This document shows positions 905 to 55,389 of a stretch of DNA of 64,000 nucleotides, piece after piece. The stretch lies in contig NZHD01000020.1 of the NCBI GenBank assembly GCA_002691205.1, positions 92,995 through 156,994 of the forward strand, given 5' to 3'. Position 1 is the stretch's first letter. The number at the start of each line of letters is the position of its first letter. Made by a program: the position numbers and the translations under genes. This DNA is from Deltaproteobacteria bacterium (GTDB lineage: Bacteria > Myxococcota_A > UBA9160 > UBA4427). Under the pieces are notes generated by a model. It was given only the letters and a program-made list of their open reading frames with translations, ran no database searches and was not told where the DNA came from.

Positions 905-2140
905 TCAAATTCCCGCCTCCTCCGCATCCATCTCGATGGCATCGCGAAGCTCAGAAAGAAAGCTCGGCAAAGCCGAACTCACACGACTCCAGTTTGGAAT
1001 TTGCGGTGCACCCATGGGGTCTCGAACGAAGCTCAGACCTGCCGTCCGCAAGGCCCCCGAAAAAGTCTCCACTGCCACCTCTTCGGCGTGCCGATCAAAC
1101 TCGAGACCATTCAACTTCGCGTCGTTACTGAAGCTCGCAATCGCGTCCTGAGCAGTCCTAACGTATGAGGCGATCATTGTGTTCAAGAAGCCTGCCTCAA
1201 ACTCGACCCCATAACTGGCCAAATTCCGAATCAGGGAGGAGGCGATATCAACGACCATCCTATGAAGACCCGCGTTGGCGTCGTTTTCGGAAAGTTCACG
1301 ATGCTTATGTTCATAATTTTCGACGAGCTCAACCTGACAAACTCGCTTCAGCGCACTGTTGCGAAAGACCTCAGCCAACACGCCGATCTCTAGCCCCCAG
1401 TCCGCAGGGATCCGATTGGCTCGCACCAAATCTGTAGTCATTGAGCACTCTCCAGCAAGTGCGTAACGAAAAGACTCCAGGTATTCCAGAAGGGGGATGG
1501 GCCCCAACACCGCCTTCATCGAGCGAAGCAAAGGCATCATAAAAAGACGCGTCACACGACCGTGCAGCCGATCCGTGACTCGACTGTAATACCCCTTTGC
1601 AAACTCATAATTCATATTCGGATTAGCGGTGGGGTAACACAGCCGGGCCAGCAACTCTCGCTGATAGTTTCGAATATCGCAATCATGAATGGCGACCACA
1701 CGTGACTCTTGAGTCGCCAGCACGTAGCCATAGGCCACCCATGTCGCCAAGCCTTTTCCAGAAGGACCTGGATCCAAACCTTCCTCGCCTAACTGCCTCA
1801 TCAAGGCTTTGAGACGGGGGCCATCGTTCCAAATCACCACCGAGCCTTTGCCCTCAATACAGCGAACAGGCTCAAACAGGTCACGCATCTCTTTGAATTC
1901 ATTTAAGCCAGCGGTACCCGAAAGACTCACCACACATTGTCTCAGATAGGGAACCTGGGAAAGCTCATCTACGATTCCCTTGAGAGCTGGACCTCGCGCT
2001 TCCGAAAACAGGGAGGGCAGCACCAAGGCAATCGGCCTCTCCTCGGAGTAATCCAGGAGCTCTCTCTCTAAGCGCGGCAGATCGGGCTTTCCTAAGCGGT
2101 GCAAGGAAGTCACCACGCCGGTCTGATGAAAATCTGACAT
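905..2140 (-). CDS. gpgS: Glucosyl-3-phosphoglycerate synthase-like glycosyltransferase
   Basis: MSDFHQTGVVTSLHRL start, LVLPSLFSE, DxD motif (IHDCD), AKGYYSRV, YALAGE, DWGLEIGVL; start moved to the second Met. Confidence 0.75.
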   Translation of the reverse strand: MSDFHQTGVVTSLHRLGKPDLPRLERELLDYSEERPIALVLPSLFSEARGPALKGIVDELSQVPYLRQCVVSLSGTAGLNEFKEMRDLFEPVRCIEGKGSVVIWNDGPRLKALMRQLGEEGLDPGPSGKGLATWVAYGYVLATQESRVVAIHDCDIRNYQRELLARLCYPTANPNMNYEFAKGYYSRVTDRLHGRVTRLFMMPLLRSMKAVLGPIPLLEYLESFRYALAGECSMTTDLVRANRIPADWGLEIGVLAEVFRNSALKRVCQVELVENYEHKHRELSENDANAGLHRMVVDIASSLIRNLASYGVEFEAGFLNTMIASYVRTAQDAIASFSNDAKLNGLEFDRHAEEVAVETFSGALRTAGLSFVRDPMGAPQIPNWSRVSSALPSFLSELRDAIEMDAEEAGI

Positions 2141-2182
2141 GGTGCAAGCGTCGCACTCTCCTGCACCCGCTGTCAAGTTCAG

Positions 2183-2560
2183 CTAGTCGACTGCCAAAGC
2201 TTCATATTGAGACGTGATCCGCTCAAGCTTCGCCATGGACACCGAATCAGTCCGATCGAATTCAAACCCGATATCGGTCACCCAAGCATCGGTCTCAGTC
2301 GCCCACGCCACGCGCCCTGAGACGGTGAGCTGCTCTTGACCGATCTCAAACGTCACCGTCAAGACTTCGCCTAATTCGATTTCACACCCGGTCACCTGAA
2401 ACCGAATTCCACCGGCACTTACGTCACGTCCCTGGGCCAAGACCTGATCTCGGCCCGCGGGTGCAATGGTTAAAACCTGATCGGTGGGAATTCGCGGATA
2501 CTTCCGCCTTTCGGGTTCGGGCAAACCCATTAAACCTTGTTGAAACTGATTGTTTTTCAT
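2183..2560 (-). CDS. Single-domain PilZ protein (c-di-GMP receptor)
   Basis: RxxxR (RRKYPR) and DxSxxG (DVSAGG) motifs, followed by GRVAW...IGFEF. Confidence 0.85.
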   Translation of the reverse strand: MKNNQFQQGLMGLPEPERRKYPRIPTDQVLTIAPAGRDQVLAQGRDVSAGGIRFQVTGCEIELGEVLTVTFEIGQEQLTVSGRVAWATETDAWVTDIGFEFDRTDSVSMAKLERITSQYEALAVD

Positions 2561-2630
2561 GATCTCATGACATCGGCGTTAAAGGCCGCCAGCTTAAGGG
2601 GTGGGCGCTGAGGTCGAAGGAGTGAAGGTC

Positions 2631-3713
2631 TTACGCCTCAAACAAGTCAAGCTGAGCGTCTTTTTCCCCTGAAATCGCAACCAACCCGGCTGCCACCACC
2701 CCGAGCGAACGCACTTCCGTGACCAGACTCACTTCACACCGATCCAACAAAGACTGGACCGCTCGCTCAAGGTCAAAGCGACTCCCGATAGCGACCGTGA
2801 GAGTTTCGCTCCGAGTCAAACGTGTTTCATCCACGAGCCCCACACGCAGCGCCAAGCGACTTGTTTTCAAACCATGCCGAGCCAGACTTCCTTCAAGGGC
2901 CGTAGATAATCGGGCCAGACAGGCATCCAATGGGCTCCGATCTCGACTGGGGAGAGACAAAGTCTCCTTACGGCTAATCGTCTTCGGGAACCGCGTCGCA
3001 CGAATTACCGAACGATCCCGCCCAGCAGCCATTTCAAGAATAGCCAAACCGTGATTTCCCAACTCCTGCTCCACCACTTTCGTATCGAGTTGCAAAATTT
3101 GTCCCACCGTACGCGCGCCCATCTCTGCCAATCGACTCGCAGTCTTTACGCCAACCCGCGGCAAACGCGAAAGCGAGAGTGGCCCAAGAAAAGCCGCAAC
3201 ATCTGGAGCCTCAACCCATCCAATGCCCTGCTCGCCCGACTCCTCAGCTGCCAAACGTGCCAACATCTTTGAGGGAGCAATCCCGAGCTGAAGCGGAAGC
3301 CCCACCTCCGACCAAGTCAGCCGTACTACTTCTTCTGCCCAACTTGACACATCATGGGCTCGGACCGGGAGCGAACTATACACTTCGCCCAAACTCCCTA
3401 GTTCTAACTTTTGAAGATTTTCCCTCAGACAGCGCACGAGTACACTCGAAACTTCACGATAAAGATCCATACGAGTTGGGCGCACAATCGCATCGGGGCA
3501 AAGCTCAGCCGCCTCGAGCATCGTCATTCCTACGGAAACGCCGACATCTTGCGCTTGCCGGCTCGCCGATTGCACTTTCCCTTTTTTGCCTGGGTCACCT
3601 CCAACGAGGATAGGCTGGCCCACCAGTTTATCATCGGCGCGACGTTCCACCTCGGCATAGAAGTTAGAAACACCCGCAAAAACAATTCTCGCCCTCGACC
3701 CAACGGCTTTCAT
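2631..3713 (-). CDS. DinB/Y-family DNA polymerase homologue lacking catalytic acidic residues (probable pseudo-polymerase)
   Basis: FYAxVE, GIAPSKMLARLA, LPRVGVKTASRL, little-finger region and C-terminal QLDLF are present, but DMD is GVS and SLDE is SLGE. Confidence 0.85.
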   Translation of the reverse strand: MKAVGSRARIVFAGVSNFYAEVERRADDKLVGQPILVGGDPGKKGKVQSASRQAQDVGVSVGMTMLEAAELCPDAIVRPTRMDLYREVSSVLVRCLRENLQKLELGSLGEVYSSLPVRAHDVSSWAEEVVRLTWSEVGLPLQLGIAPSKMLARLAAEESGEQGIGWVEAPDVAAFLGPLSLSRLPRVGVKTASRLAEMGARTVGQILQLDTKVVEQELGNHGLAILEMAAGRDRSVIRATRFPKTISRKETLSLPSRDRSPLDACLARLSTALEGSLARHGLKTSRLALRVGLVDETRLTRSETLTVAIGSRFDLERAVQSLLDRCEVSLVTEVRSLGVVAAGLVAISGEKDAQLDLFEA

Positions 3714-18174: not shown

Positions 18175-20593
18175 GACTACTTACGTAGCTAAGTTCAAGC
18201 CCTTTAAGCAACTCTCCATCGATCTCTTCAACATCCCGACGATTTTGCTCTGGGAGCACCACTTTTTCGATGCCGGCCCGTTTGGCCGCCAAAACCTTTT
18301 CCTTAATGCCCCCCACCGGCAAAACCTTGCCCCGGAGCGTAATCTCGCCCGTGATGGCCGTTCCTGAACGCACGGGGCGCCCAGTCATCATGGACGTGAG
18401 GGAGGTCACCATCGCAATCCCAGCCGAAGGCCCGTCCTTAGGGATCGCCCCTGATGGAACATGAACGTGGATATCTCGGTCGTCAAAGTCTGCCTGTGGA
18501 TCCAAGCCATACTCTTGGGCGTGACTCCGAAGCCACGAACGTGCGGCCTCTACAGACTCTCTCATGACGTCGCCTAAGGAACCCGTAAGCTTCAATTGCC
18601 CTGCACCCTTCATCCCGGTTGACTCTACGAACAGAATGTCTCCTCCTGCCGGTGTCCAGGCCAACCCCATGGCGACACCGGGTTGCAGTTCCTCCTCCAC
18701 CACCCCGGACTCATATTTATAGGGGCCAAGCATCTCGGGAAGGTCCTCAGGGACAATCCGAATCGCTTCCGAAAATTCGGATGGGTCCGATTCAGCGACT
18801 CTCCGCGCAACCTTCCTGCACACTGAACCGATTTCTCTTTCGAGATTCCGCACGCCCGCCTCTCGGGTGTATCGTTCAATCACGAACCCTAAGGCTTCTC
18901 GCGTCAGTTCAAAATCAATTTCAGTAATTCCATTCTCTTTTACTTGGCGCGGCACCAGAAAGGTCTCCGCAATCTCAAGTTTCTCTTCCAGCGTGTAGCC
19001 CGGCAGTTCGAGAACTTCCATTCGGTCCCTCAAAGCAGCCGGTATCGGCTCCATCAAATTCGCCGTCGCGATAAAAAGGACTTGCGAAAGGTCAAAAGGC
19101 ACCTCAAGAAAGTGGTCGCTGAACTCCGTATTTTGCTCCGGATCAAGAACCTCGAGAAGGGCTGACGAGGGGTCCCCACGTCCATCGGCTCCAATCTTGT
19201 CAATCTCATCGAGCATCATTACAGGATTCCGAGTTCCCGCCTTCCGAACGGATTGGATAATCCTCCCCGGCATTGCCCCGATGTATGTTCTACGGTGACC
19301 GCGAACCTCAGCCTCATCCCGAACGCCGCCTAATGAGAAACGAACAAATTCTCGATTCAGTGCCCTGGCGACCGACTTCCCGAGAGATGTCTTCCCCGTT
19401 CCTGGAGGACCTACAAGACACAGAATAGGTCCCTTGAGATCTTTTTTGAGGGACAAGACGGCAATGTATTCGAGAATTCGATCTTTGACTTTTTCAAGTC
19501 CGCAGTGGTCTTGATCGAGAATCTCGCGAGCCGACTGAATATCAAGACGGTCCTCACTGGCGTTCGACCAAGGGAGGTCCGTCATCCACTCGAGATAACT
19601 CCGTATAACACTATGCTCGGCCGCCGCAGGAGGCGTCTGAGAGAACCTTTCCAGTTCCCGTCTCGCCTGCTTGTCAGCTTCCTCGGGCATCTGAAGAGCG
19701 TCGATTTTATCTCCGAAGCGCTCAACCCCCTGTTCGCCCTCCTCGCTTTCACCAAGCTCCCTGCGAATCGCCTCAAGTTGCTGACGCAGCATGTATTCCT
19801 TCTGCGTCTTGCCCATATCACTCTGGACTTTTTCTTTAATCTCGGTCTCAATCTCGAGAGCTTGTCCTTCCTTAGTCAGTTGTGCCAAAACGAGCTTCAG
19901 CCGCTCCGGCACATCTAAGGCCGCCAGCACCTTTTGCTTGCCCGAAATATCCAGTTCTAAATTCGAAGCGACTAAATCAGCGAGCTTGGAAGGATCGTCT
20001 AGATTTGCGACCAGCACTTGAAGGTCATCGCTTAAACGAGCCGTTTCGGTGACAAGCATTCCGAATTGCTGAGAAACATTTCGAGTAAGCGCCTCGACTT
20101 CAACTGAATCCAAATCACCGGATTCAACTACATTTTTAATTTGCGCTCTCAGGTAGGGCTGATCGTCAATCAAAGAGTCAATAGAGACGCGAGCCACACC
20201 TTGGACCAGTAAACGATACGAGTCATCTGGAAATTTGAGCATCTTAACGACCCGCAGAACCGTTCCAACATCAAAAATATCGTCAAAGGTCGGCGGCCCT
20301 TCGATCTCTCTTTTCAAGGCTGCGCAAACCAAGAGCCGATCGGGCCGGAGCAAAACGTCATCAATTAATTCTTGAGAGGCCGGTGTGTTCACTAACAGCG
20401 GGGACAAAAGAAATGGAAAAAGAACCGTATTTTTAAGAGGTAAGATCGGAAGTTCCGAGGGGATATCCACCGGGTCAATCTGTCCGCCGCCCAGATCGCC
20501 TGATTCAACGCGCACCTCTACTCCGCCCGGAAGCACCGCCGAAGCCGGTTGCAGGACTTCATCTTCACTTCGGTCTTTATTTTCGTCGCTCAT
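18122..20593 (-). CDS. lon: ATP-dependent Lon protease
   Basis: LPILPL N-domain, GPPGTGKTS, RRTYIGAMPG, LDEIDK, DGPSAG (catalytic Ser), GGIKEK. Confidence 0.97.
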   Translation of the reverse strand: MSDENKDRSEDEVLQPASAVLPGGVEVRVESGDLGGGQIDPVDIPSELPILPLKNTVLFPFLLSPLLVNTPASQELIDDVLLRPDRLLVCAALKREIEGPPTFDDIFDVGTVLRVVKMLKFPDDSYRLLVQGVARVSIDSLIDDQPYLRAQIKNVVESGDLDSVEVEALTRNVSQQFGMLVTETARLSDDLQVLVANLDDPSKLADLVASNLELDISGKQKVLAALDVPERLKLVLAQLTKEGQALEIETEIKEKVQSDMGKTQKEYMLRQQLEAIRRELGESEEGEQGVERFGDKIDALQMPEEADKQARRELERFSQTPPAAAEHSVIRSYLEWMTDLPWSNASEDRLDIQSAREILDQDHCGLEKVKDRILEYIAVLSLKKDLKGPILCLVGPPGTGKTSLGKSVARALNREFVRFSLGGVRDEAEVRGHRRTYIGAMPGRIIQSVRKAGTRNPVMMLDEIDKIGADGRGDPSSALLEVLDPEQNTEFSDHFLEVPFDLSQVLFIATANLMEPIPAALRDRMEVLELPGYTLEEKLEIAETFLVPRQVKENGITEIDFELTREALGFVIERYTREAGVRNLEREIGSVCRKVARRVAESDPSEFSEAIRIVPEDLPEMLGPYKYESGVVEEELQPGVAMGLAWTPAGGDILFVESTGMKGAGQLKLTGSLGDVMRESVEAARSWLRSHAQEYGLDPQADFDDRDIHVHVPSGAIPKDGPSAGIAMVTSLTSMMTGRPVRSGTAITGEITLRGKVLPVGGIKEKVLAAKRAGIEKVVLPEQNRRDVEEIDGELLKGLELSYVSSLDEALKQTMSGPIASSA

Positions 20594-46524: not shown

Positions 46525-47400
46525 ATGAGCGACTCCACAGAGGCAACTGACACCGAAGTTCTCGACGGTCTCGGCCTCGCCAATCAAATCCGGGCTGAAT
46601 TGGCCGATGAAATCAGTCAACTGGTGGCCGCCGGCCACCGCGCCCCTCGCCTCGTGGTGATTCTCGTGGGCGACGACCCCGCGAGTCGTTCTTACATTAA
46701 GGGCAAGCAACGTGCCTGCAGCCGAATTGGGATGGAATCGCTCGAGCATCTCTTGCCCGAAAGCACCACTGAAGCCGAACTCCTTGAACTCATCCGTGAA
46801 TTAAACCGTGACGACGAGGTCGACGGCATTCTCGTGCAGCTGCCCCTTCCAAATGGGATCTCGGCCGCGCGCGTTGCCGAAACGGTCAGCCCCGAAAAAG
46901 ATGCCGATGCTTTGCACCCGATCACCTCCGGCCAGCTCATGGCGGGCACCGCCGAGCTCATCTCGTGCACCCCCCTTGGAGTCATGGCCGCTTTAGACCA
47001 TCACGCCATTCCCATGGAGGGAGCCCATGCGGTGGTCATCGGAAGAAGCAACATCGTGGGCAAACCAGTCTCTCTTCTGCTGCAACAACGAAATGCCACA
47101 GTCACCATGTGCCATTCACGGACACGTGACCTCGCTTCCGTTTGCCGAAGTGCTGATATTCTCGTGGCCGCGACGGGTCGTCCGCGAATGGTCAAGGCAG
47201 ACTGGGTCAAGCCCGGGGCCGCGGTCATCGATGTCGGGGTCACCGAAGTCGACGGGAAGCTGGTTGGAGATGTGGATTTTGAGGCCATGCTCGGACACGC
47301 TCGATTGGTAACCCCTTCTCGCAGGGGAATCGGGCCGTTAACCATCACCATGTTGCTGCGAAACACTCTGCACGCATACCGGTCACGAAAAAACATATGA
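46525..47400 (+). CDS. folD: Methylenetetrahydrofolate dehydrogenase/cyclohydrolase
   Basis: SRSYIKGK, GILVQLPLP, CTP.G, GRSNIVGKP, IDVG, GDVDF, GP.TI.ML. Confidence 0.96.
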   Translation: MSDSTEATDTEVLDGLGLANQIRAELADEISQLVAAGHRAPRLVVILVGDDPASRSYIKGKQRACSRIGMESLEHLLPESTTEAELLELIRELNRDDEVDGILVQLPLPNGISAARVAETVSPEKDADALHPITSGQLMAGTAELISCTPLGVMAALDHHAIPMEGAHAVVIGRSNIVGKPVSLLLQQRNATVTMCHSRTRDLASVCRSADILVAATGRPRMVKADWVKPGAAVIDVGVTEVDGKLVGDVDFEAMLGHARLVTPSRRGIGPLTITMLLRNTLHAYRSRKNI

Positions 47401-48503
47401 GCTCAACTTTGCGTACACCTCTGTACGCTCGTCACGTTGAGCTTGGGGCAAAAATGATGGAGTTTGCTGGCTTCTCCATGCCTGTGCACTACTCCTCAAT
47501 CAAGATCGAGCACGCCGCGGTCCGTGAATGCGCTGGAGTCTTCGACGTCTCCCACATGGGCCAAATCAGTATTCAGGGCCCCCAAAGCGTTCCATTTCTC
47601 GAGTCTCTCCTGACCTGCCACATCTCCACGCTGGAGCCTGGGCAGGTTCGATATGGCTTGATGTGTAATGAGGATGGGGGCTGCGTGGACGATGTCACGG
47701 TCTACCGCCGGGCCGAGCATGACTTCTTCCTGTGCGTCAATGCAGCCAACCTCCAGTCTGGACTCGGGTGGATCCTTGAGCACCGGCCCCAGGGCTGCAC
47801 AGTCCACGACGAAAGCTCTTCCACGGGCTTAGTTGCCCTCCAGGGACCGCACTCGGCTCGAATCCTGGACCAACTGATTGCCACCAACGACTCCGTCAAG
47901 CCCAGCGCTCTCAAGCGCTTCCGGTTTTCGACCTGGAGCTGGGAGCAGACTTCCCTTTGCGTCTCACGCACGGGCTACACCGGCTCAGACGGCTTTGAGA
48001 TCTATATCGACTCATCTGCAACGCCCAACTTCTTTGACGCGCTCATGGAGACTGGAGCCCCTCTCGGACTGGTTCCCGCTGGTCTCGGCGCGCGAGACAC
48101 CCTACGTATCGAAGCCGCCCTCCCCCTTTACGGCCATGAACTTGACTCTGAGACTTCGCCTCTCGACGCCGGTCTGGAGAAGTTCATTAAACGCAAAGAC
48201 GGGGGATTCCTTGGACATGAGGCCATGGAGCGCAGGGCCACTGACCCAGCACGCCCCCACCTGATCGGCTTCGAGCTCATCGACCGAGGCGTCGCCCGAG
48301 CCGGCTATCCCATCTACTCCGAAGAAAAAGTAATTGGCCATGTCACGTCGGGAACGCCGTCTCCCACTCTGGGCAAATCCATCGGCCTCGGCTTCGTGCC
48401 CCATGATCAAGCCAAGGAAGGTCTCGTTTTCAGTATTGATGTCCGAGGTCGCAAAATTGCCGCTCAAAGGACGAAGATTCCCTTCGTCGTAAAACCTAAA
48501 TAA
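47397..48503 (+). CDS. gcvT: Glycine cleavage aminomethyltransferase T
   Basis: FAGFSMP, FDVSHMG, DD, ALQGP, RTGYTG.DGFE, GLGARDTLR.EA...LYG. Confidence 0.96.
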   Translation: MSSTLRTPLYARHVELGAKMMEFAGFSMPVHYSSIKIEHAAVRECAGVFDVSHMGQISIQGPQSVPFLESLLTCHISTLEPGQVRYGLMCNEDGGCVDDVTVYRRAEHDFFLCVNAANLQSGLGWILEHRPQGCTVHDESSSTGLVALQGPHSARILDQLIATNDSVKPSALKRFRFSTWSWEQTSLCVSRTGYTGSDGFEIYIDSSATPNFFDALMETGAPLGLVPAGLGARDTLRIEAALPLYGHELDSETSPLDAGLEKFIKRKDGGFLGHEAMERRATDPARPHLIGFELIDRGVARAGYPIYSEEKVIGHVTSGTPSPTLGKSIGLGFVPHDQAKEGLVFSIDVRGRKIAAQRTKIPFVVKPK

Positions 48504-48545
48504 CGCAATGACTCAGCTCAAAGGCGTACGCCCAAGGAGATAGAA

Positions 48546-48947
48546 ATGGCAGACTACAACCTTCCGTCGGAACACCGTTACAGTTCAGACGATGAATGGG
48601 CCAGCCTCACCACTGAAGGCCAGTACCTCATCGGCATTAGCGACTACGCACAACAACAACTGGGCGACATCGTCTTTGTTGAGCTGCCCACCCCGGGTGA
48701 TGTAGTCACGGCCGGACGCCCTCTGGGCGTGATCGAGTCCGTCAAGGCCGTCTCTGATATTGTCTCTCCCCTATCAGGTGAGATCATCTCCATCAATGAA
48801 GATCTGGCTGACAATCCGGAAAGAATCAACGAGGACTGCTACAGCTCAGGCTGGCTCATCTGCATCGAACCCTCGGAACCGGCCGAGTTCAACGAATTGA
48901 TGAACGCGGATGAATACCTCACTCACATTGAAGAGCGTGAGGACTAA
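48546..48947 (+). CDS. gcvH: Glycine cleavage H protein
   Basis: GISDYAQ..LGDIVFVELP, lipoyl ESVKA, GWL. Confidence 0.95.
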   Translation: MADYNLPSEHRYSSDDEWASLTTEGQYLIGISDYAQQQLGDIVFVELPTPGDVVTAGRPLGVIESVKAVSDIVSPLSGEIISINEDLADNPERINEDCYSSGWLICIEPSEPAEFNELMNADEYLTHIEERED

Positions 48948-49004: not shown

Positions 49005-49904
49005 TCAACCCTCTTGTTGGTCATCCTGTGTCTTTGAGACACGCATCTTCGCAATATCCGACCATGCTCCTGAGCTATCGACTTTTAAGTATTGCTTCCA
49101 ATGCTTCCGAGCTTGCGCTGGACGTGAAAGCTTCTCGAAAAGCAGTGCCAAGTTGATATGAAGGTCAGGGTAAAGAGGATCAGCCGCTAGAGCCCGCCTG
49201 TAATGATGCAGCGCCCCATCGTCTTCCCCCACCTCCTCGAGGAGGTTACCGAGGTTAAAGTTCGCCTCAAGATGATTTGAATCGAGCTTGAGGCACGCTT
49301 CGAAGTACCCGCGCGCCATAACGCGTTCGCCGCGATTGTAATAAACGGCTCCCAGATTGCAGTGACAGTCCGCAAAGTCTGGCGCGAGTTCAAGGCCAAG
49401 CAAATAACACTCGATAGCCTGACTGAGTGTGGCTGGGTCCGAATCCAATTCACAGCCCTTTGCAAAAAGAGCTTCGGCCTCCTCACTCACGGTCAGCTCT
49501 CTCTCCGCCTGAGGATCAAAATGAGCGACTTTTGGCTTCTGGTCTCGACTCACCCCTGCGAAATCTAAAACCGTCTGCCCACTCGGCTCAAGCAAGGCTC
49601 CTTCGTGTCGAACCACAATGCGATCAGACCCTTCAAGCCACACACGCAGCGAACGAACAGGATCATCCAAATCGGGCAAGTGTTCTCGAACGGCCTCCAC
49701 CTGCCTACGAATGCGATGCAGAGAGATGCCCTGCTCCAGCAAGGACAACACGCCACGAACGCTCACAAGATCAGCAAACCCAAAGCGCGGTTTCTCTTCT
49801 CCATCGAACTGCGGAGACACCAACGCTGTGCGTTCCCAGTAGCGAAGACGCGCCGGGGAAACCTTGAGGATCCTTGCGGCATCAGGGAGCGAATAAAAGC
49901 TCAC
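49005..49904 (-). CDS. MerR-type HTH protein with C-terminal TPR repeats
   Basis: AARILKVSPARLRYWER, FGFADL, then repeated A..NLG..Y TPR motifs; likely GTG start. Confidence 0.85.
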   Translation of the reverse strand: MSFYSLPDAARILKVSPARLRYWERTALVSPQFDGEEKPRFGFADLVSVRGVLSLLEQGISLHRIRRQVEAVREHLPDLDDPVRSLRVWLEGSDRIVVRHEGALLEPSGQTVLDFAGVSRDQKPKVAHFDPQAERELTVSEEAEALFAKGCELDSDPATLSQAIECYLLGLELAPDFADCHCNLGAVYYNRGERVMARGYFEACLKLDSNHLEANFNLGNLLEEVGEDDGALHHYRRALAADPLYPDLHINLALLFEKLSRPAQARKHWKQYLKVDSSGAWSDIAKMRVSKTQDDQQEG

Positions 49905-50021
49905 GGCCGGAATAGTACACAGAACAATCGCGGGAGGAAACCATCGCCTCTTATTTTTCCAAAACATCTCGATTCACCGAGATCAATTCACACGGAGCAT
50001 AGGCACGCTAGTCTTGGAGGT

Positions 50022-50120
50022 GGCGGGGTTTCCGCGGCTGGTGCCCGGCCTCGACTTCAAATCGAGTGTGGAGCGTGTCGCCACGTTCTAGGCGGGTTCG
50101 ATTCCCGTCCCTCGCCGCCA
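50022..50120 (+). tRNA. selC: tRNA-Sec(UCA)
   Basis: CTCGA-CTTCAAA-TCGAG anticodon arm, TGGT D-loop with long D-stem, 9-bp variable arm, TTCGATT T-loop, G discriminator, CCA; 99 nt. Confidence 0.92.
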
Positions 50121-50557
50121 ACAAAAGCTTCAAAAAAAATCGCCTGGGCTTTCCCCTCGATGATCAAAGTGCCATTGGGGCAAAAAAAACCCAGCTGAAA
50201 TCTCATTCAGGGTAAGCTCACCCACCCTTCAACACAGTGAAGCCTATCTGGCCCTATAAAATCCATCGTCGCAAGTCTCTGCGGATAGTGCCTTTGAACT
50301 TTATGATTTGGTTACGCCCTCAAGTCAAAACCTGCCGGAACCTCAACTCCGGCCTAATCTGGCTCAAACGCAATACAGACAGCTTTCACCTGTGTGGTAT
50401 CCTATCAGGTGAGTGATGTGGAAACAGCGGAAGAAACGCCTTTCAAGACCCCAGCCCGCTACGACCCCAGGTCGTAGCCGCACGGGCCTCCCCCGCTCTG
50501 AGCCATCCACATCCTCCATTCACCCTGGGCGCCCTGCGTCCAACATGGAGGAACACT

Positions 50558-50972: not shown

Positions 50973-53771
50973 TCAGGCTCGAAGGGCTTCCGCCGTGTAG
51001 GAGACCTCGCTCATCATGAGATCCTCAGGGGGCCCCTCCGCCACAATTTCACCTCCCCCCGGCCCACCTTCAGGTCCGACATCAATCACCCAATCAGCGC
51101 GACGAATCAGGTCCAGATTGTGCTCCACCACAATCACGCTCCCACCCTGGTCGATCAGTTCAGCGAGACAACCGAGCAAAATCTGAACATCCGATGCATG
51201 CAGGCCCGTCGTCGGTTCATCAAAGACATAAAGGCGCCCCTTCGCGGACTCTGTGAGAGCCAGAGCCAATCGAATTCGCTGATGTTCGCCCCCCGACAGC
51301 GTAGATAGCGGCTGCCCCAAAGTGAGGTAGCTCAGACCCACTTGTGACAAAGGAGCCAGCTTCGATTCGATTCGAGTATCTCCTGCAAAGAACTCGAGGG
51401 CCTCGCGAATCGTCATCTCTAAAACATCGACGACCGAGCGGCCATCTAACTTGATACTCAAAACTTCCTTGCGGTAGCGCCTCCCTCCGCACGCATCACA
51501 GGGCATGTGAACATTGTCCAGAAACTGCATATCCACCACCACCTCGCCTGAACCTTCGCAACTATCACAGCGCCCTCCCGGCACATTGAATGAGAACCAA
51601 CCCGGGCCAACCCCCAATGCGCGTGCCTGACGTGTTGCAGCGAAGCGTTGACGTATGCCGTCAAAGGCCTTGCAGACCGTCGCCGGATTAGATCGAGCGC
51701 TTCGAACCGCCGGAGTCTGATCCACTACCACAACCCCCGACACCTTCTCAGCACCCTCAATTCGATCACACTCACCAGGAGGATCTCGACGTCCATTCTG
51801 GTCAGCCAAATTTCCAACCAAGACCGATTGAATCAGAGTCGACTTCCCGGCGCCTGAAACACCTGTGACCGCCACCATGCAGTGCAAGGGAATATTTACC
51901 GTCACTGATTTCAGGTTGTTCGCCCGAGCCCCCACAATTCGCAGGCTGTCCATTTTTTCAAGAACTCCCGCCGAACGAGGTTTTCCACTGGACTCAAATT
52001 CACCGCGAAGAAGCTTTCCTGTCTCCGAAGAAGGGTGACCTCTTACCGCGTCAAGCGACCCTTCAACGAGAAGTTGTCCTCCCAGCCTCCCCGCACCCGG
52101 ACCTAGATCGATCACATGATCGGCCGCTGCTAGAATTTCAACCGCATGCTCAACAACCACCACTGTGTTTCCCTGATCCCGGATGGCCATCAAAACGTCG
52201 ATGAGACGACGCATGTCTCGCGAATGCAATCCCACGGAGGGTTCATCTAAGACGTACAAAGAGGCCGTCAATCCACCGCCAAGTGCAGTGGCCAATTGAA
52301 TCCTCTGGGCTTCCCCTCCTGAAAGTGTTCGCATAGGTCGATCAAGTGAGATGTACCCCAAGCCCACAGCATCCAGCGTCGCCACGCGCGTCTGTAACAT
52401 TTCCGGGAGTCGGCCTGCAATCTCTTGCTCTTTTTCTGTGAGTTCCAGCGCATCGATCCATGCCGCAAGAGAAGCCACATCAAAGGTACTGAGCTCGCCC
52501 ACATGAACCCCTGCAACCTCAATGGATCGCGCCTCAGGACAAAGTCGCGACCCCTCACACTCATCGCATAAAATATAGGTTCGATAGCGCGCAATCAGAA
52601 CACGGCTTTGCACCTTGTACCGACGTCCTTCAAGCCAATCAAAAAAGCCCTGCACGCCGTACCAGCCCTCTTCATCGCCCTCCAGAACCCAGGCCCTGTC
52701 AGCCTCCTCAAGTTCAGACCAAGGCAATTCAACGGGGACACCTCGGATCTCACAGGCTGAGAGAAGGTCGCGCTCTAGGCTCCGGCCCATCGGGGTTGCA
52801 AAGGGGGCGATCGCATGATCTTTCAAACTCACATCCTGATCGGGTACCACGCGCCCCCAGTCGATCGTCGCTTGACGGCCGAACCCTTGGCAGGCCTCAC
52901 AAGCCCCCAACGGACTGTTAAACGAAAGCCGAGCAGGCTCCGGATTTGGGAAACGACGCCCACACCCCTGACATGCGAACCCTTGACGAAAGAAGGCTAA
53001 ATCGTTCTCGCCCTCACCGTGCAGAGCCACAATCAATTCGCCCTCTCCGCGCATAAAGGCGGCCGCAATCGCCTCCGAAAGGCGTGTTAATTCAGAATCC
53101 CTGGACTCCTCTGAATCTCCGTGTGTGGCCCGAATCGCCAATCGATCGATCAACAGGAAGCCCTTTGAAACCAAAGACTCAAGTACGACGATCGGTGACT
53201 CCATCCAGTCCACTACGGCCCCAGATGCATCGACCATCCGAGTAAATCCCTCAGAACAGTAACGATCTCTCAAATCCTGAAGATTCTCGCCCGTCGCTTC
53301 CGGAAGGCGAACGCCGATTAAAATTCGCTGCCCCTTAAATCGCTCTAAAATACGCTGGGCGATATCCGGAACCGTTCCTCTCTCAACCAAAAGGTCGCAG
53401 TCCGGACAACGCGTACGCCCCAGTTTCGCAAAGAAGAGACGGAGAGCATCCAAGACCTCACTGGCCGACCCGACTGTGCTGCGCGCCTGAGTGACACGGT
53501 TCACCTGCTCTATCGCAATGGCTGGAGGCAAACTCGAAATTCGGTCCACCGCCGGCCGAGGCAACCTCTCGAGAAATTGTCGAGCATACGTGGAGAGCGA
53601 ACTGACGTAGCGTCGTTGCCCCTCCGCATAAAGGGTATCGAAGGCCAACGTTGATTTGCCCGAGCCCGAAACCCCCGTAATCACTGTCAGAGATCTCAAC
53701 GGGATACGGCAGTCCACGCCCTTTAAATTGTGAGAACGGGCGTTCTCAATGAGAATCTCAGTCTGTGCCAT
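50973..53771 (-). CDS. uvrA: Excinuclease ABC subunit A
   Basis: HNLK, GVSGSGKS, LAFDTLYAEGQRRY, Zn fingers, LSGGE x2, DEPSVGLH, DEPTTGLH. Confidence 0.95.
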   Translation of the reverse strand: MAQTEILIENARSHNLKGVDCRIPLRSLTVITGVSGSGKSTLAFDTLYAEGQRRYVSSLSTYARQFLERLPRPAVDRISSLPPAIAIEQVNRVTQARSTVGSASEVLDALRLFFAKLGRTRCPDCDLLVERGTVPDIAQRILERFKGQRILIGVRLPEATGENLQDLRDRYCSEGFTRMVDASGAVVDWMESPIVVLESLVSKGFLLIDRLAIRATHGDSEESRDSELTRLSEAIAAAFMRGEGELIVALHGEGENDLAFFRQGFACQGCGRRFPNPEPARLSFNSPLGACEACQGFGRQATIDWGRVVPDQDVSLKDHAIAPFATPMGRSLERDLLSACEIRGVPVELPWSELEEADRAWVLEGDEEGWYGVQGFFDWLEGRRYKVQSRVLIARYRTYILCDECEGSRLCPEARSIEVAGVHVGELSTFDVASLAAWIDALELTEKEQEIAGRLPEMLQTRVATLDAVGLGYISLDRPMRTLSGGEAQRIQLATALGGGLTASLYVLDEPSVGLHSRDMRRLIDVLMAIRDQGNTVVVVEHAVEILAAADHVIDLGPGAGRLGGQLLVEGSLDAVRGHPSSETGKLLRGEFESSGKPRSAGVLEKMDSLRIVGARANNLKSVTVNIPLHCMVAVTGVSGAGKSTLIQSVLVGNLADQNGRRDPPGECDRIEGAEKVSGVVVVDQTPAVRSARSNPATVCKAFDGIRQRFAATRQARALGVGPGWFSFNVPGGRCDSCEGSGEVVVDMQFLDNVHMPCDACGGRRYRKEVLSIKLDGRSVVDVLEMTIREALEFFAGDTRIESKLAPLSQVGLSYLTLGQPLSTLSGGEHQRIRLALALTESAKGRLYVFDEPTTGLHASDVQILLGCLAELIDQGGSVIVVEHNLDLIRRADWVIDVGPEGGPGGGEIVAEGPPEDLMMSEVSYTAEALRA

Positions 53772-54225: not shown

Positions 54226-55389
54226 TTAATATCTAGGCACCTGATCATCCACAGTCAAAGACCAGGCTTCGATGCCTCCATCGAGATTTTTAACTTGCTC
54301 AAAGCCCGCTTCCATCAGCCTTTCGCAGACGCCCTGACTTCGCCCTCCTTTGTGGCAATGCACAATGATGGGCTTGTGCTTCCAAGCCTCCAAGCCAACT
54401 AGTCCGGCTTCAAAGTCAGAAAGGGGAATCCACTGAGCCCCCTCTATGCGAGCACAGGCGACTTCGTCGGCTTCGCGAACGTCGACCAAGAGCAACTCTT
54501 CCCCACGCTCCATCTGAGCATGCACTTCATCCGCCGAAACCGTTTCCACCCTCTCGTGCCCCGCGGAAGGAACCGCGCCACAGAAGTCGAGATAGTCAAT
54601 CAATTCAGTCACGGTGGGGTGCTCACCGCAGACCGGACAGTCCGGATCCTTTTTGAGCTGAAACTCAGTCCATTCCATGGCCAGGGCATCATAAATCAAC
54701 AAACGTCCCACCAAAGAACGACCCAATCCTGTGAGTAATTTAATAGTTTCTGTCGCCTGAACCGTCGCAATCAAACCTGGCAGAACGCCCAAGACGCCTC
54801 CTTCCGCGCAGGAGGGAACAGACCCTGGCGGGGGCGGTTCGGGGAATAAGCATCGATAACACGGCCCCGAGCGAGCATCAAAAACACTCGCCTGGCCATC
54901 AAAACGAAAAATCGAACCATAGACATTGGGCTTGCCGAGAAGAACACACGCGTCGTTAGAAAGGTAACGCGTCGGAAAATTGTCGGTTCCATCGACAATC
55001 ACATCGTAGTTCTTAAAGATTTCCAGAGCATTTCCTGAATCCAGACGCAGCTTATGCACCTCAACTTGGATGTCAGGATTCAGAGCCCGTACGCGCTCTT
55101 GGGCCACGTCCACTTTCGCTCGACCGATATCGGCCGTGCTGTAAAGAATCTGGCGCTGAAGATTAGAGAGGTCGACGACATCGTCATCCAGCAATCCGAG
55201 ACGCCCAACTCCGGCCGCTGCAAGGTAAAGAGCCAAAGGGCACCCGAGCCCTCCAGCGCCGATCAACAAAACGCTGGCCTCAAGCAAACGCTCTTGGCCC
55301 TCGATTCCCATCTCAGGGAGACTGAGGTGCCTGCGGTAACGTTCAAACTGGTCGGGACGAAGTAGACCTTTACGAGCACCCATAGGCAT
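54226..55389 (-). CDS. moeZ: MoeB/ThiF adenylyltransferase fused to rhodanese (MoeZ-like)
   Basis: RYRRH, GAGGLG, SNLQRQ, DGTDNF, CYRC, CAEGG, CPVC, rhodanese CHKGGRS. Confidence 0.92.
   Translation of the reverse strand: MPMGARKGLLRPDQFERYRRHLSLPEMGIEGQERLLEASVLLIGAGGLGCPLALYLAAAGVGRLGLLDDDVVDLSNLQRQILYSTADIGRAKVDVAQERVRALNPDIQVEVHKLRLDSGNALEIFKNYDVIVDGTDNFPTRYLSNDACVLLGKPNVYGSIFRFDGQASVFDARSGPCYRCLFPEPPPPGSVPSCAEGGVLGVLPGLIATVQATETIKLLTGLGRSLVGRLLIYDALAMEWTEFQLKKDPDCPVCGEHPTVTELIDYLDFCGAVPSAGHERVETVSADEVHAQMERGEELLLVDVREADEVACARIEGAQWIPLSDFEAGLVGLEAWKHKPIIVHCHKGGRSQGVCERLMEAGFEQVKNLDGGIEAWSLTVDDQVPRY

Follow-up and report, generated by a model that had tools for sequence, protein, structure and literature searches.

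Level 8 of the acceptor/T helix in selC from an uncultured marine member of the Myxococcota: a mismatch that appears typical of the lineage

The question raised by this locus is how a tRNASec with a mismatch inside its acceptor/T helix is built, and whether it requires a selenocysteine machinery of its own kind. In the window, by which we denote the whole stretch of 64,000 nucleotides that was analysed, a selC gene was found at 50022-50120 on the forward strand, reading GGCGGGGUUUCCGCGGCUGGUGCCCGGCCUCGACUUCAAAUCGAGUGUGGAGCGUGUCGCCACGUUCUAGGCGGGUUCGAUUCCCGUCCCUCGCCGCCA. A reading made from the sequence alone had described it as a structural variant, with a 7/6 alternative to the usual acceptor and T stems, a bulged D stem and a 5-bp anticodon stem, and had concluded that SelA and SelB are adapted to it. 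ARAGORN called 50022-50120 as tRNA-SeC(tca), and the covariance-model search proposed in that reading assigned the gene to Rfam tRNA-Sec RF01852 with 64.3 bits and E = 8.8e-11 (gathering cut-off 47). In the search of the whole 4.56-Mb genome with RF01852, this was the one selC above threshold. The consensus of RF01852 is a 9/4 drawing and marks levels 8-9 of the gene as non-canonical, hence the model makes no call on the register. The parts of the tRNA are as follows, with conservation given for relatives from the same order unless stated otherwise.

50022-50120, + strand: selC, tRNA-Sec (UCA), 99 nt including the encoded CCA; ARAGORN, Rfam RF01852, sole copy in the genome
50022-50028, + strand: 5' strand of the acceptor stem (nt 1-5, 5a and 6), paired with 50110-50116; 7 standard pairs, 4 of 7 with both partners altered across 43 relatives, 100% of cells paired
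50029, + strand: U7, opposite C66 (50109), at level 8 of the 13-level acceptor/T helix, non-standard; 43 of 51 relatives with U, 6 with A, one with C and one with G
50030-50031, + strand: acceptor-to-D linker U8 U9; identical bases in the linker of Aquifex aeolicus
50032-50048, + strand: D arm, 6-bp stem with bulged C50035 and 4-nt loop UGGU, including G14:C21 (50037:50044) and C15:G20a (50038:50043); 5 of 6 pairs with changes on both sides
50049-50068, + strand: anticodon arm, C26:G44 (50049:50068) plus 5 bp, bulged U50067 (43a), loop CUUCAAA, anticodon UCA at 50056-50058; 4 of 6 pairs covary
50069-50090, + strand: extra (variable) arm, 9-bp stem and 4-nt loop UCGC; 7 of 9 pairs with changes on both sides
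50091, + strand: linker G48; invariant in the order, G in 80 of the 84 diverse selC listed with any base at 66, A in Dormibacterota
50092-50108, + strand: T arm, 5-bp stem (G49:U65, C50:G64, then three G:C) and loop UUCGAUU; 100% of cells paired
50109, + strand: C66, across from U7 and able to pair with G48; conserved as C in 49 of 51 relatives
[quoted passage not shown]

The pairings on which the sequence-only reading was built are present. G50022-G50028 pair with C50116-C50110 over 7 bp, including one G:U (G50026:U50112), and are followed by the mismatch of U50029 with C50109; C50109 is complementary to G50091, and it is precisely this 7/6 cloverleaf that minimum-free-energy folding gives, at -47.8 kcal/mol. 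The bulged C in the D stem (CCG[C]GGC / GCCCGG) is C50035. The anticodon stem does contain the five pairs described, but is better read as 6 bp, with C50049:G50068 added and U50067 bulged. The features by which a tRNASec is recognized were found throughout: the anticodon UCA in the 7-nt loop CUUCAAA (50055-50061), G50117 as G73 followed by CCA, an extra stem of 9 bp (6-9 bp in bacterial tRNASec), and a D arm of 6 pairs and one bulge with the loop UGGU, corresponding to the 6-bp stem and 4-nt loop that constitute the SelA identity element. With 8 nt between T stem and G73, the acceptor/T helix has 13 levels, 12 of them standard pairs, and level 8 is either U7.C66 or, alternatively, G48:C66. The same distance of 8 nt led us to reject the 12-bp tRNASec variants, 7/5 or 8/4, as a description of this gene.

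Within the window, selC is located between the genes of a MerR-HTH/TPR regulator and a UvrA-like protein, with folD-gcvT-gcvH upstream:

46525-48947, + strand: folD, gcvT and gcvH, upstream of selC
49005-49967, - strand: MerR-HTH/TPR regulator, neighbour of selC
50973-53771, - strand: UvrA-like ABC ATPase of 932 aa, neighbour of selC
54226-55389, - strand: MoeB/ThiF-rhodanese protein, neighbour of selC

No sel genes occur among the neighbours of selC in the window, and a promoter and terminator scan around the gene gave no matches. An ORF of 197 aa at 49605-50198, which overlaps the tRNA, was discarded as spurious.

The genome was also searched for selA, selB and selD, as the sequence-only reading had advised, and all three were detected above their cut-offs. 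SelA matched TIGR00474 with 490 bits, SelB matched TIGR00475 with 306 bits and comprises GTPase, beta-barrel and winged-helix domains, and SelD matched TIGR00476 with 262 bits and has a pyridine-nucleotide disulphide oxidoreductase domain fused to its N-terminus. The selD frame (contig C96, 1390-3768, - strand) encodes 793 aa, with the N-terminal Pyr_redox_2 domain being NADH-oxidoreductase-like; about 5 kb from it, the same contig carries an NAD-type formate-dehydrogenase-like molybdoenzyme without Sec. On the + strand of contig C41, serS (170-1459) is followed by selB (1381-3414) in an overlapping frame on the same strand, probably an operon joining the beginning of the Sec pathway to its end.

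Candidate selenoproteins were collected by scanning for an in-frame TGA with a neighbouring Cys and then requiring a Pfam match that spans the TGA. This yielded five candidate genes with TGA at the position of a redox Cys, one Rdx/SelW-like, three AhpC/TSA-Redoxin and one UGSC, with the motif CxxU in the Rdx protein and W-U-P-x-C in the AhpC/TSA-Redoxin proteins, one of which is fused to DsbD_N. A Sec-containing formate dehydrogenase was not among them, as an in-frame stop was present in none of the four molybdopterin oxidoreductases of the genome. The five loci are:

C8, 8074-8286, + strand; C84, 15055-15822, + strand; C90, - strand; C113, ~18340-18903, + strand; C118, 51513-52631, + strand: candidate selenoprotein genes

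Since selA, selB and selD are present together with five candidate selenoprotein genes, the tRNASec of the window is, as judged from gene content, in use.

For comparison within the order, selC was taken from 50 other genomes and combined with the gene of the window to a set of 51 genes, 43 of them distinct in sequence. Among these 43, changes on both sides were observed in 22 of 34 stem pairs, and the observed covariation score was reached in none of 500 shuffles. The seven outer acceptor pairs covary without restriction (compare GGCGGGG/CCUCGCC with GGAAGCG/CGCUUCC), C15:G20a is invariant, G14:C21 is kept in 42 of 43 and C26:G44 in 43 of 43 distinct sequences. The bulged D stem is common to nearly all genes of the set, the bulge lying one position further along in some relatives. 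At level 8, C66 lies opposite U or A in 48 of the 51 genes, with the invariant G before the T stem, and positions 7 and 66 form a standard pair in just 1 of the 43 distinct sequences. Exceptions are G047 with C7:G66, a canonical 8/5 gene, G048 with G7:C66, and G037 with A7.G66 and G48, in which neither register pairs. On contig C140 of genome G051, two selC copies with equal scores (707-801 and 1978-2072) lie 1.27 kb apart on the same strand.

These data bear directly on the suspicion that the mismatch stems from faulty sequencing or assembly, or from a pseudogene in decay; nothing but the mismatch itself speaks for this. U50029 is not a sequencing error, because the gene is identical over all 99 nt in two other species (G028 and G033) and because U occupies this position in 43 of the 51 relatives; the level-8 state as such recurs in 48 of 51. 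Compensatory changes are spread throughout all stems, and the genome has the full sel set together with candidate selenoprotein genes. Conservation across species has thus effectively refuted both error and decay.

Two further scans covered bacteria at large. In the first, a collection of species-representative genomes was searched for the anticodon loop and T arm of the window selC with C66 fixed. Among the 112 parsable selC obtained (105 distinct), position 7 was U in 108 (96%) and A in 4, never G or C; most came from Actinomycetota (Acidimicrobiia, Mycobacterium, Streptomyces, Micromonospora, Saccharopolyspora, Kocuria), with some further ones from Myxococcota, Gemmatimonadota and Acidobacteriota. 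In the second, looser scan, the search was for the anticodon loop and GGUUCGANUCC only, which gave 84 well-formed selC from many phyla; these are the first scan matches listed, a non-random sample in which kinship is ignored. Among these 84 listed, 48 have a standard pair at 7:66; the other 36 (43%) do not, comprising G.A (13), G.G (10), A.G (4), U.C (4), A.C (2) and three others. Wobble pairs G.U or U.G at 7:66 were found in none of the 84 listed diverse selC. Where two pyrimidines meet at 7:66, they are almost exclusively U.C, C being the sole base at 66 able to pair with G48, and G48 itself is present in 80 of the 84 listed irrespective of the base at 66.

A search for the same T-arm family without G48 returned about 27 species of Ca. 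Dormibacterota with U7, C66 and A48, and one Acidimicrobiia genome with A7, C66 and A48; in Sandaracinaceae (Myxococcota), C7:G66 is combined with U48 or A48. In Dormibacterota, selC lies between selD and selA-selB (for example CAWHWM010000010.1, 4477-4572, with selD on the - strand), and because of this selD-selC-selA-selB cluster it is taken to be a working gene. From these comparisons, a level 8 that is not of the Watson-Crick type appears common in bacterial tRNASec, being found in about four of ten lineages sampled among the 84 listed, and U7.C66 is the normal, inherited condition throughout the order as well as in the selC genes of Actinomycetota and Dormibacterota. In the latter, U7 with C66 persists in the absence of G48.

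How the junction folds was then weighed between registers. In a true 7+6 fold, G48 (50091) would leave the D-stem triple and form a Watson-Crick pair with C66 (50109) as the sixth pair of the T stem, which we regard as possible but doubtful. It would, as part of the same tentative reading, have U7 join U8-U9 as a 3-nt linker and keep the 13-bp helix with its boundary shifted by one level; the extra arm would abut the T stem without a linker, as it does in archaeal and eukaryal tRNASec. The 7/6 alternative can be drawn, as the sequence-only reading had noted: minimum-free-energy and centroid folds both show it, it is favoured in the nearest-neighbour model by about 2.3 kcal/mol, and in the folding of point variants the in silico change G48A left a minimum free energy of -45.5 kcal/mol in place of -47.8, a cost of about 2.3. 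The pair G48:C66 is possible in 41 of the 43 distinct sequences of the order, and it would neatly explain why C66 is strongly kept beside the invariant G48 in the order and in Actinomycetota, and why C, which alone pairs with G48, is the partner in nearly all pyrimidine-pyrimidine cases. U7, conserved at 96% while positions 8 and 9 vary, resembles the conserved U that follows the 7-bp stem of ordinary tRNAs. The idea is also already in print for mycobacteria, whose tRNASec has an identical junction and is drawn with seven acceptor pairs and six pairs in the T stem (Behra et al. 2026, RNA Biol, PMC13449736), but that published drawing is a prediction.

What the 7+6 fold lacks is covariation, for which the sequence-only reading had suggested looking among related selC genes: 48:66 is G:C in 41 and unpaired in 2 of the 43 distinct sequences, and the sole both-side change in the order, in G047, yields a pair between 7 and 66, C7:G66. 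G48 is near-universal even where the base at 66 is A or G and unpairable, and its conservation is explained by the triple of the crystal structure of Aquifex aeolicus tRNASec, in which linker G48 stacks on U8 and forms C15:G20a:G48, while U8 forms G14:C21:U8 (Itoh et al. 2013, PMC3711452). The A7.G66 of G037, with G48, pairs in neither register. The strongest evidence comes from Dormibacterota (A48) and the one Acidimicrobiia genome (A7, A48), in which C66 is retained with no G available as its partner; in Dormibacterota, A48.C66 could still be an A+.C wobble within a 7/6 register. Because Dormibacterota keep U7 and C66 with A48, a Watson-Crick pair at level 8 is not needed in either register. 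A dynamic junction, in which 8+5 (U.C) and 7+6 (G:C) exchange and SerRS, SelA, SelB and the ribosome select between them, would accommodate the difference of about 2 kcal/mol between the registers in the nearest-neighbour model, and both states would be sterically simple shifts of a nick in a coaxial stack, to go by the Aquifex structure. The A48 lineages, however, show that the G:C state is dispensable, and we consider such an exchange improbable.

The identity and conservation of selC, the presence of selA, selB and selD, and the candidate selenoprotein genes come from the present analysis, and function is assigned by homology. The gene at 50022-50120, the single selC of this uncultured marine Myxococcota bacterium, is probably functional and most likely folds as 8+5, with U7.C66 as a tolerated, possibly selected, closing pair of non-Watson-Crick type. 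In this 8+5 fold, U7.C66 would stack on G49.U65, and G48 would stay in the triple C15:G20a:G48. Should the class with U7, C66 and G48 (Myxococcota, Actinomycetota and some Planctomycetota) really fold as 7+6, which seems to us rather unlikely, this would constitute a third natural build of the 13-bp acceptor/T helix beside 8+5 and 9+4, having an acceptor of canonical length, a conserved U, a 3-nt linker and an extra arm set directly on the T stem.

By homology, SerRS would charge the tRNASec via G73 and the long extra arm, SelA would turn Ser into Sec while reading the D arm, and SelB would bring Sec-tRNASec to UGA codons. In E. coli, the pairs C7-G66, G49.U65 and C50-G64 form a box that is antideterminant for EF-Tu and determinant for SelB (Rudinger 1996, cited in PMC9976931). 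Level 8 lies within a box of this type (7:66, 49:65, 50:64), which would reject EF-Tu and be read by SelB, and by analogy a non-standard 7:66 may help to keep the tRNASec off EF-Tu. The discrete classes seen at 7:66, with G.U missing, suggest selection for particular non-Watson-Crick pairs in this EF-Tu/SelB box. Within the order, any of U.C, A.C, A.G, C:G and G:C at level 8 is evidently tolerated by the local machinery, at least to judge from the genes compared. Tolerance is preferred over co-adaptation of SelA and SelB because level 8 varies within the order and because the same junction occurs with G48 or A48 across phyla. For the adapted SelA and SelB proposed by the sequence-only reading nothing was found: the D arm read by SelA is standard, and level 8 is varied within one order. 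Nor does the term structural variant fit the junction, since U.C at level 8 is standard in the whole order (48 of 51) and in several phyla. The selC of the window thus appears to be an ordinary one, with a junction mismatch typical of its lineage and no need for a special SelA or SelB.

For the window itself, this is of little consequence; the comparison of selC genes has a modest general value. In 2013, G48 was stated to be completely conserved in bacterial tRNASec (PMC3711452), a claim made from fewer sequences that is contradicted by its exceptions, above all A48 in about 27 Dormibacterota species. The variety at 7:66 and the exceptions at G48 are relevant to the way in which SelB and EF-Tu recognize the box 7:66 / 49:65 / 50:64, and to designing tRNASec variants with which the genetic code can be expanded.

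Among known systems, the closest description in three dimensions is the crystal structure of Aquifex aeolicus tRNASec, which has 99 nt and the 8+5 build, with acceptor pairs from 1:72 to 5a:67a, 6:67 and 7:66 and the linker U8-U9, a D stem of 6 bp from which C11a is flipped out, a D loop of 4 nt, an anticodon stem of 6 bp by virtue of C26:G44 with U43a flipped out, and an extra stem of 9 bp (Itoh et al. 2013, PMC3711452). The gene of the window shares with it the length of 99 nt, U8-U9, the bulged 6-bp D stem and 4-nt loop, C26:G44 with the U43a bulge, the 9-bp extra stem, the linker G48, G73 and all parts of both triples, which are conserved in the order. It differs in the place of the D-stem bulge, which follows nt 12 here and nt 13 in some relatives, as against C11a in Aquifex; bulges at or near the C11a and U43a positions are frequent in bacterial tRNASec (PMC3711452). 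Because the same parts occur in the Aquifex structure, the D-stem bulge and the anticodon stem of seemingly 5 bp, which the sequence-only reading had counted towards a variant, are textbook features of a normal bacterial tRNASec. Level 8 is U7.C66 here; the comparison with Aquifex follows the published description of its structure.

The tRNASec of mycobacteria and other Actinomycetota resembles that of the window in the 7-bp acceptor, the following U, the T arm G-GCGGG-UUCGAUU-CCCGU-C and G73. The mycobacterial selC has about 95 nt, a shorter extra arm and in some cases an unbulged D stem, whereas the selC of the window has 99 nt and a bulge; the mycobacterial gene is also directly upstream of selA-selB, whereas selC, selA, selB and selD lie on four separate contigs here. 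With the tRNASec of E. coli (8/5), the gene shares the 13-level helix, G49.U65, C50-G64, G48, G73 and the UCA anticodon, and departs from it at level 8, C7-G66 there and U7.C66 here. The D stem in E. coli has no bulge, and the extra arm is shorter than that of the window selC. The 12-bp variants, 7/5 of the Cloacimonetes type and 8/4 with a bulge 51a (Santesmasses 2017, PMC5330540; Mukai 2017, PMC5389517), likewise depart from the 8/5 textbook drawing and came from genome surveys; they miss one level of the helix, whereas all 13 are occupied here.
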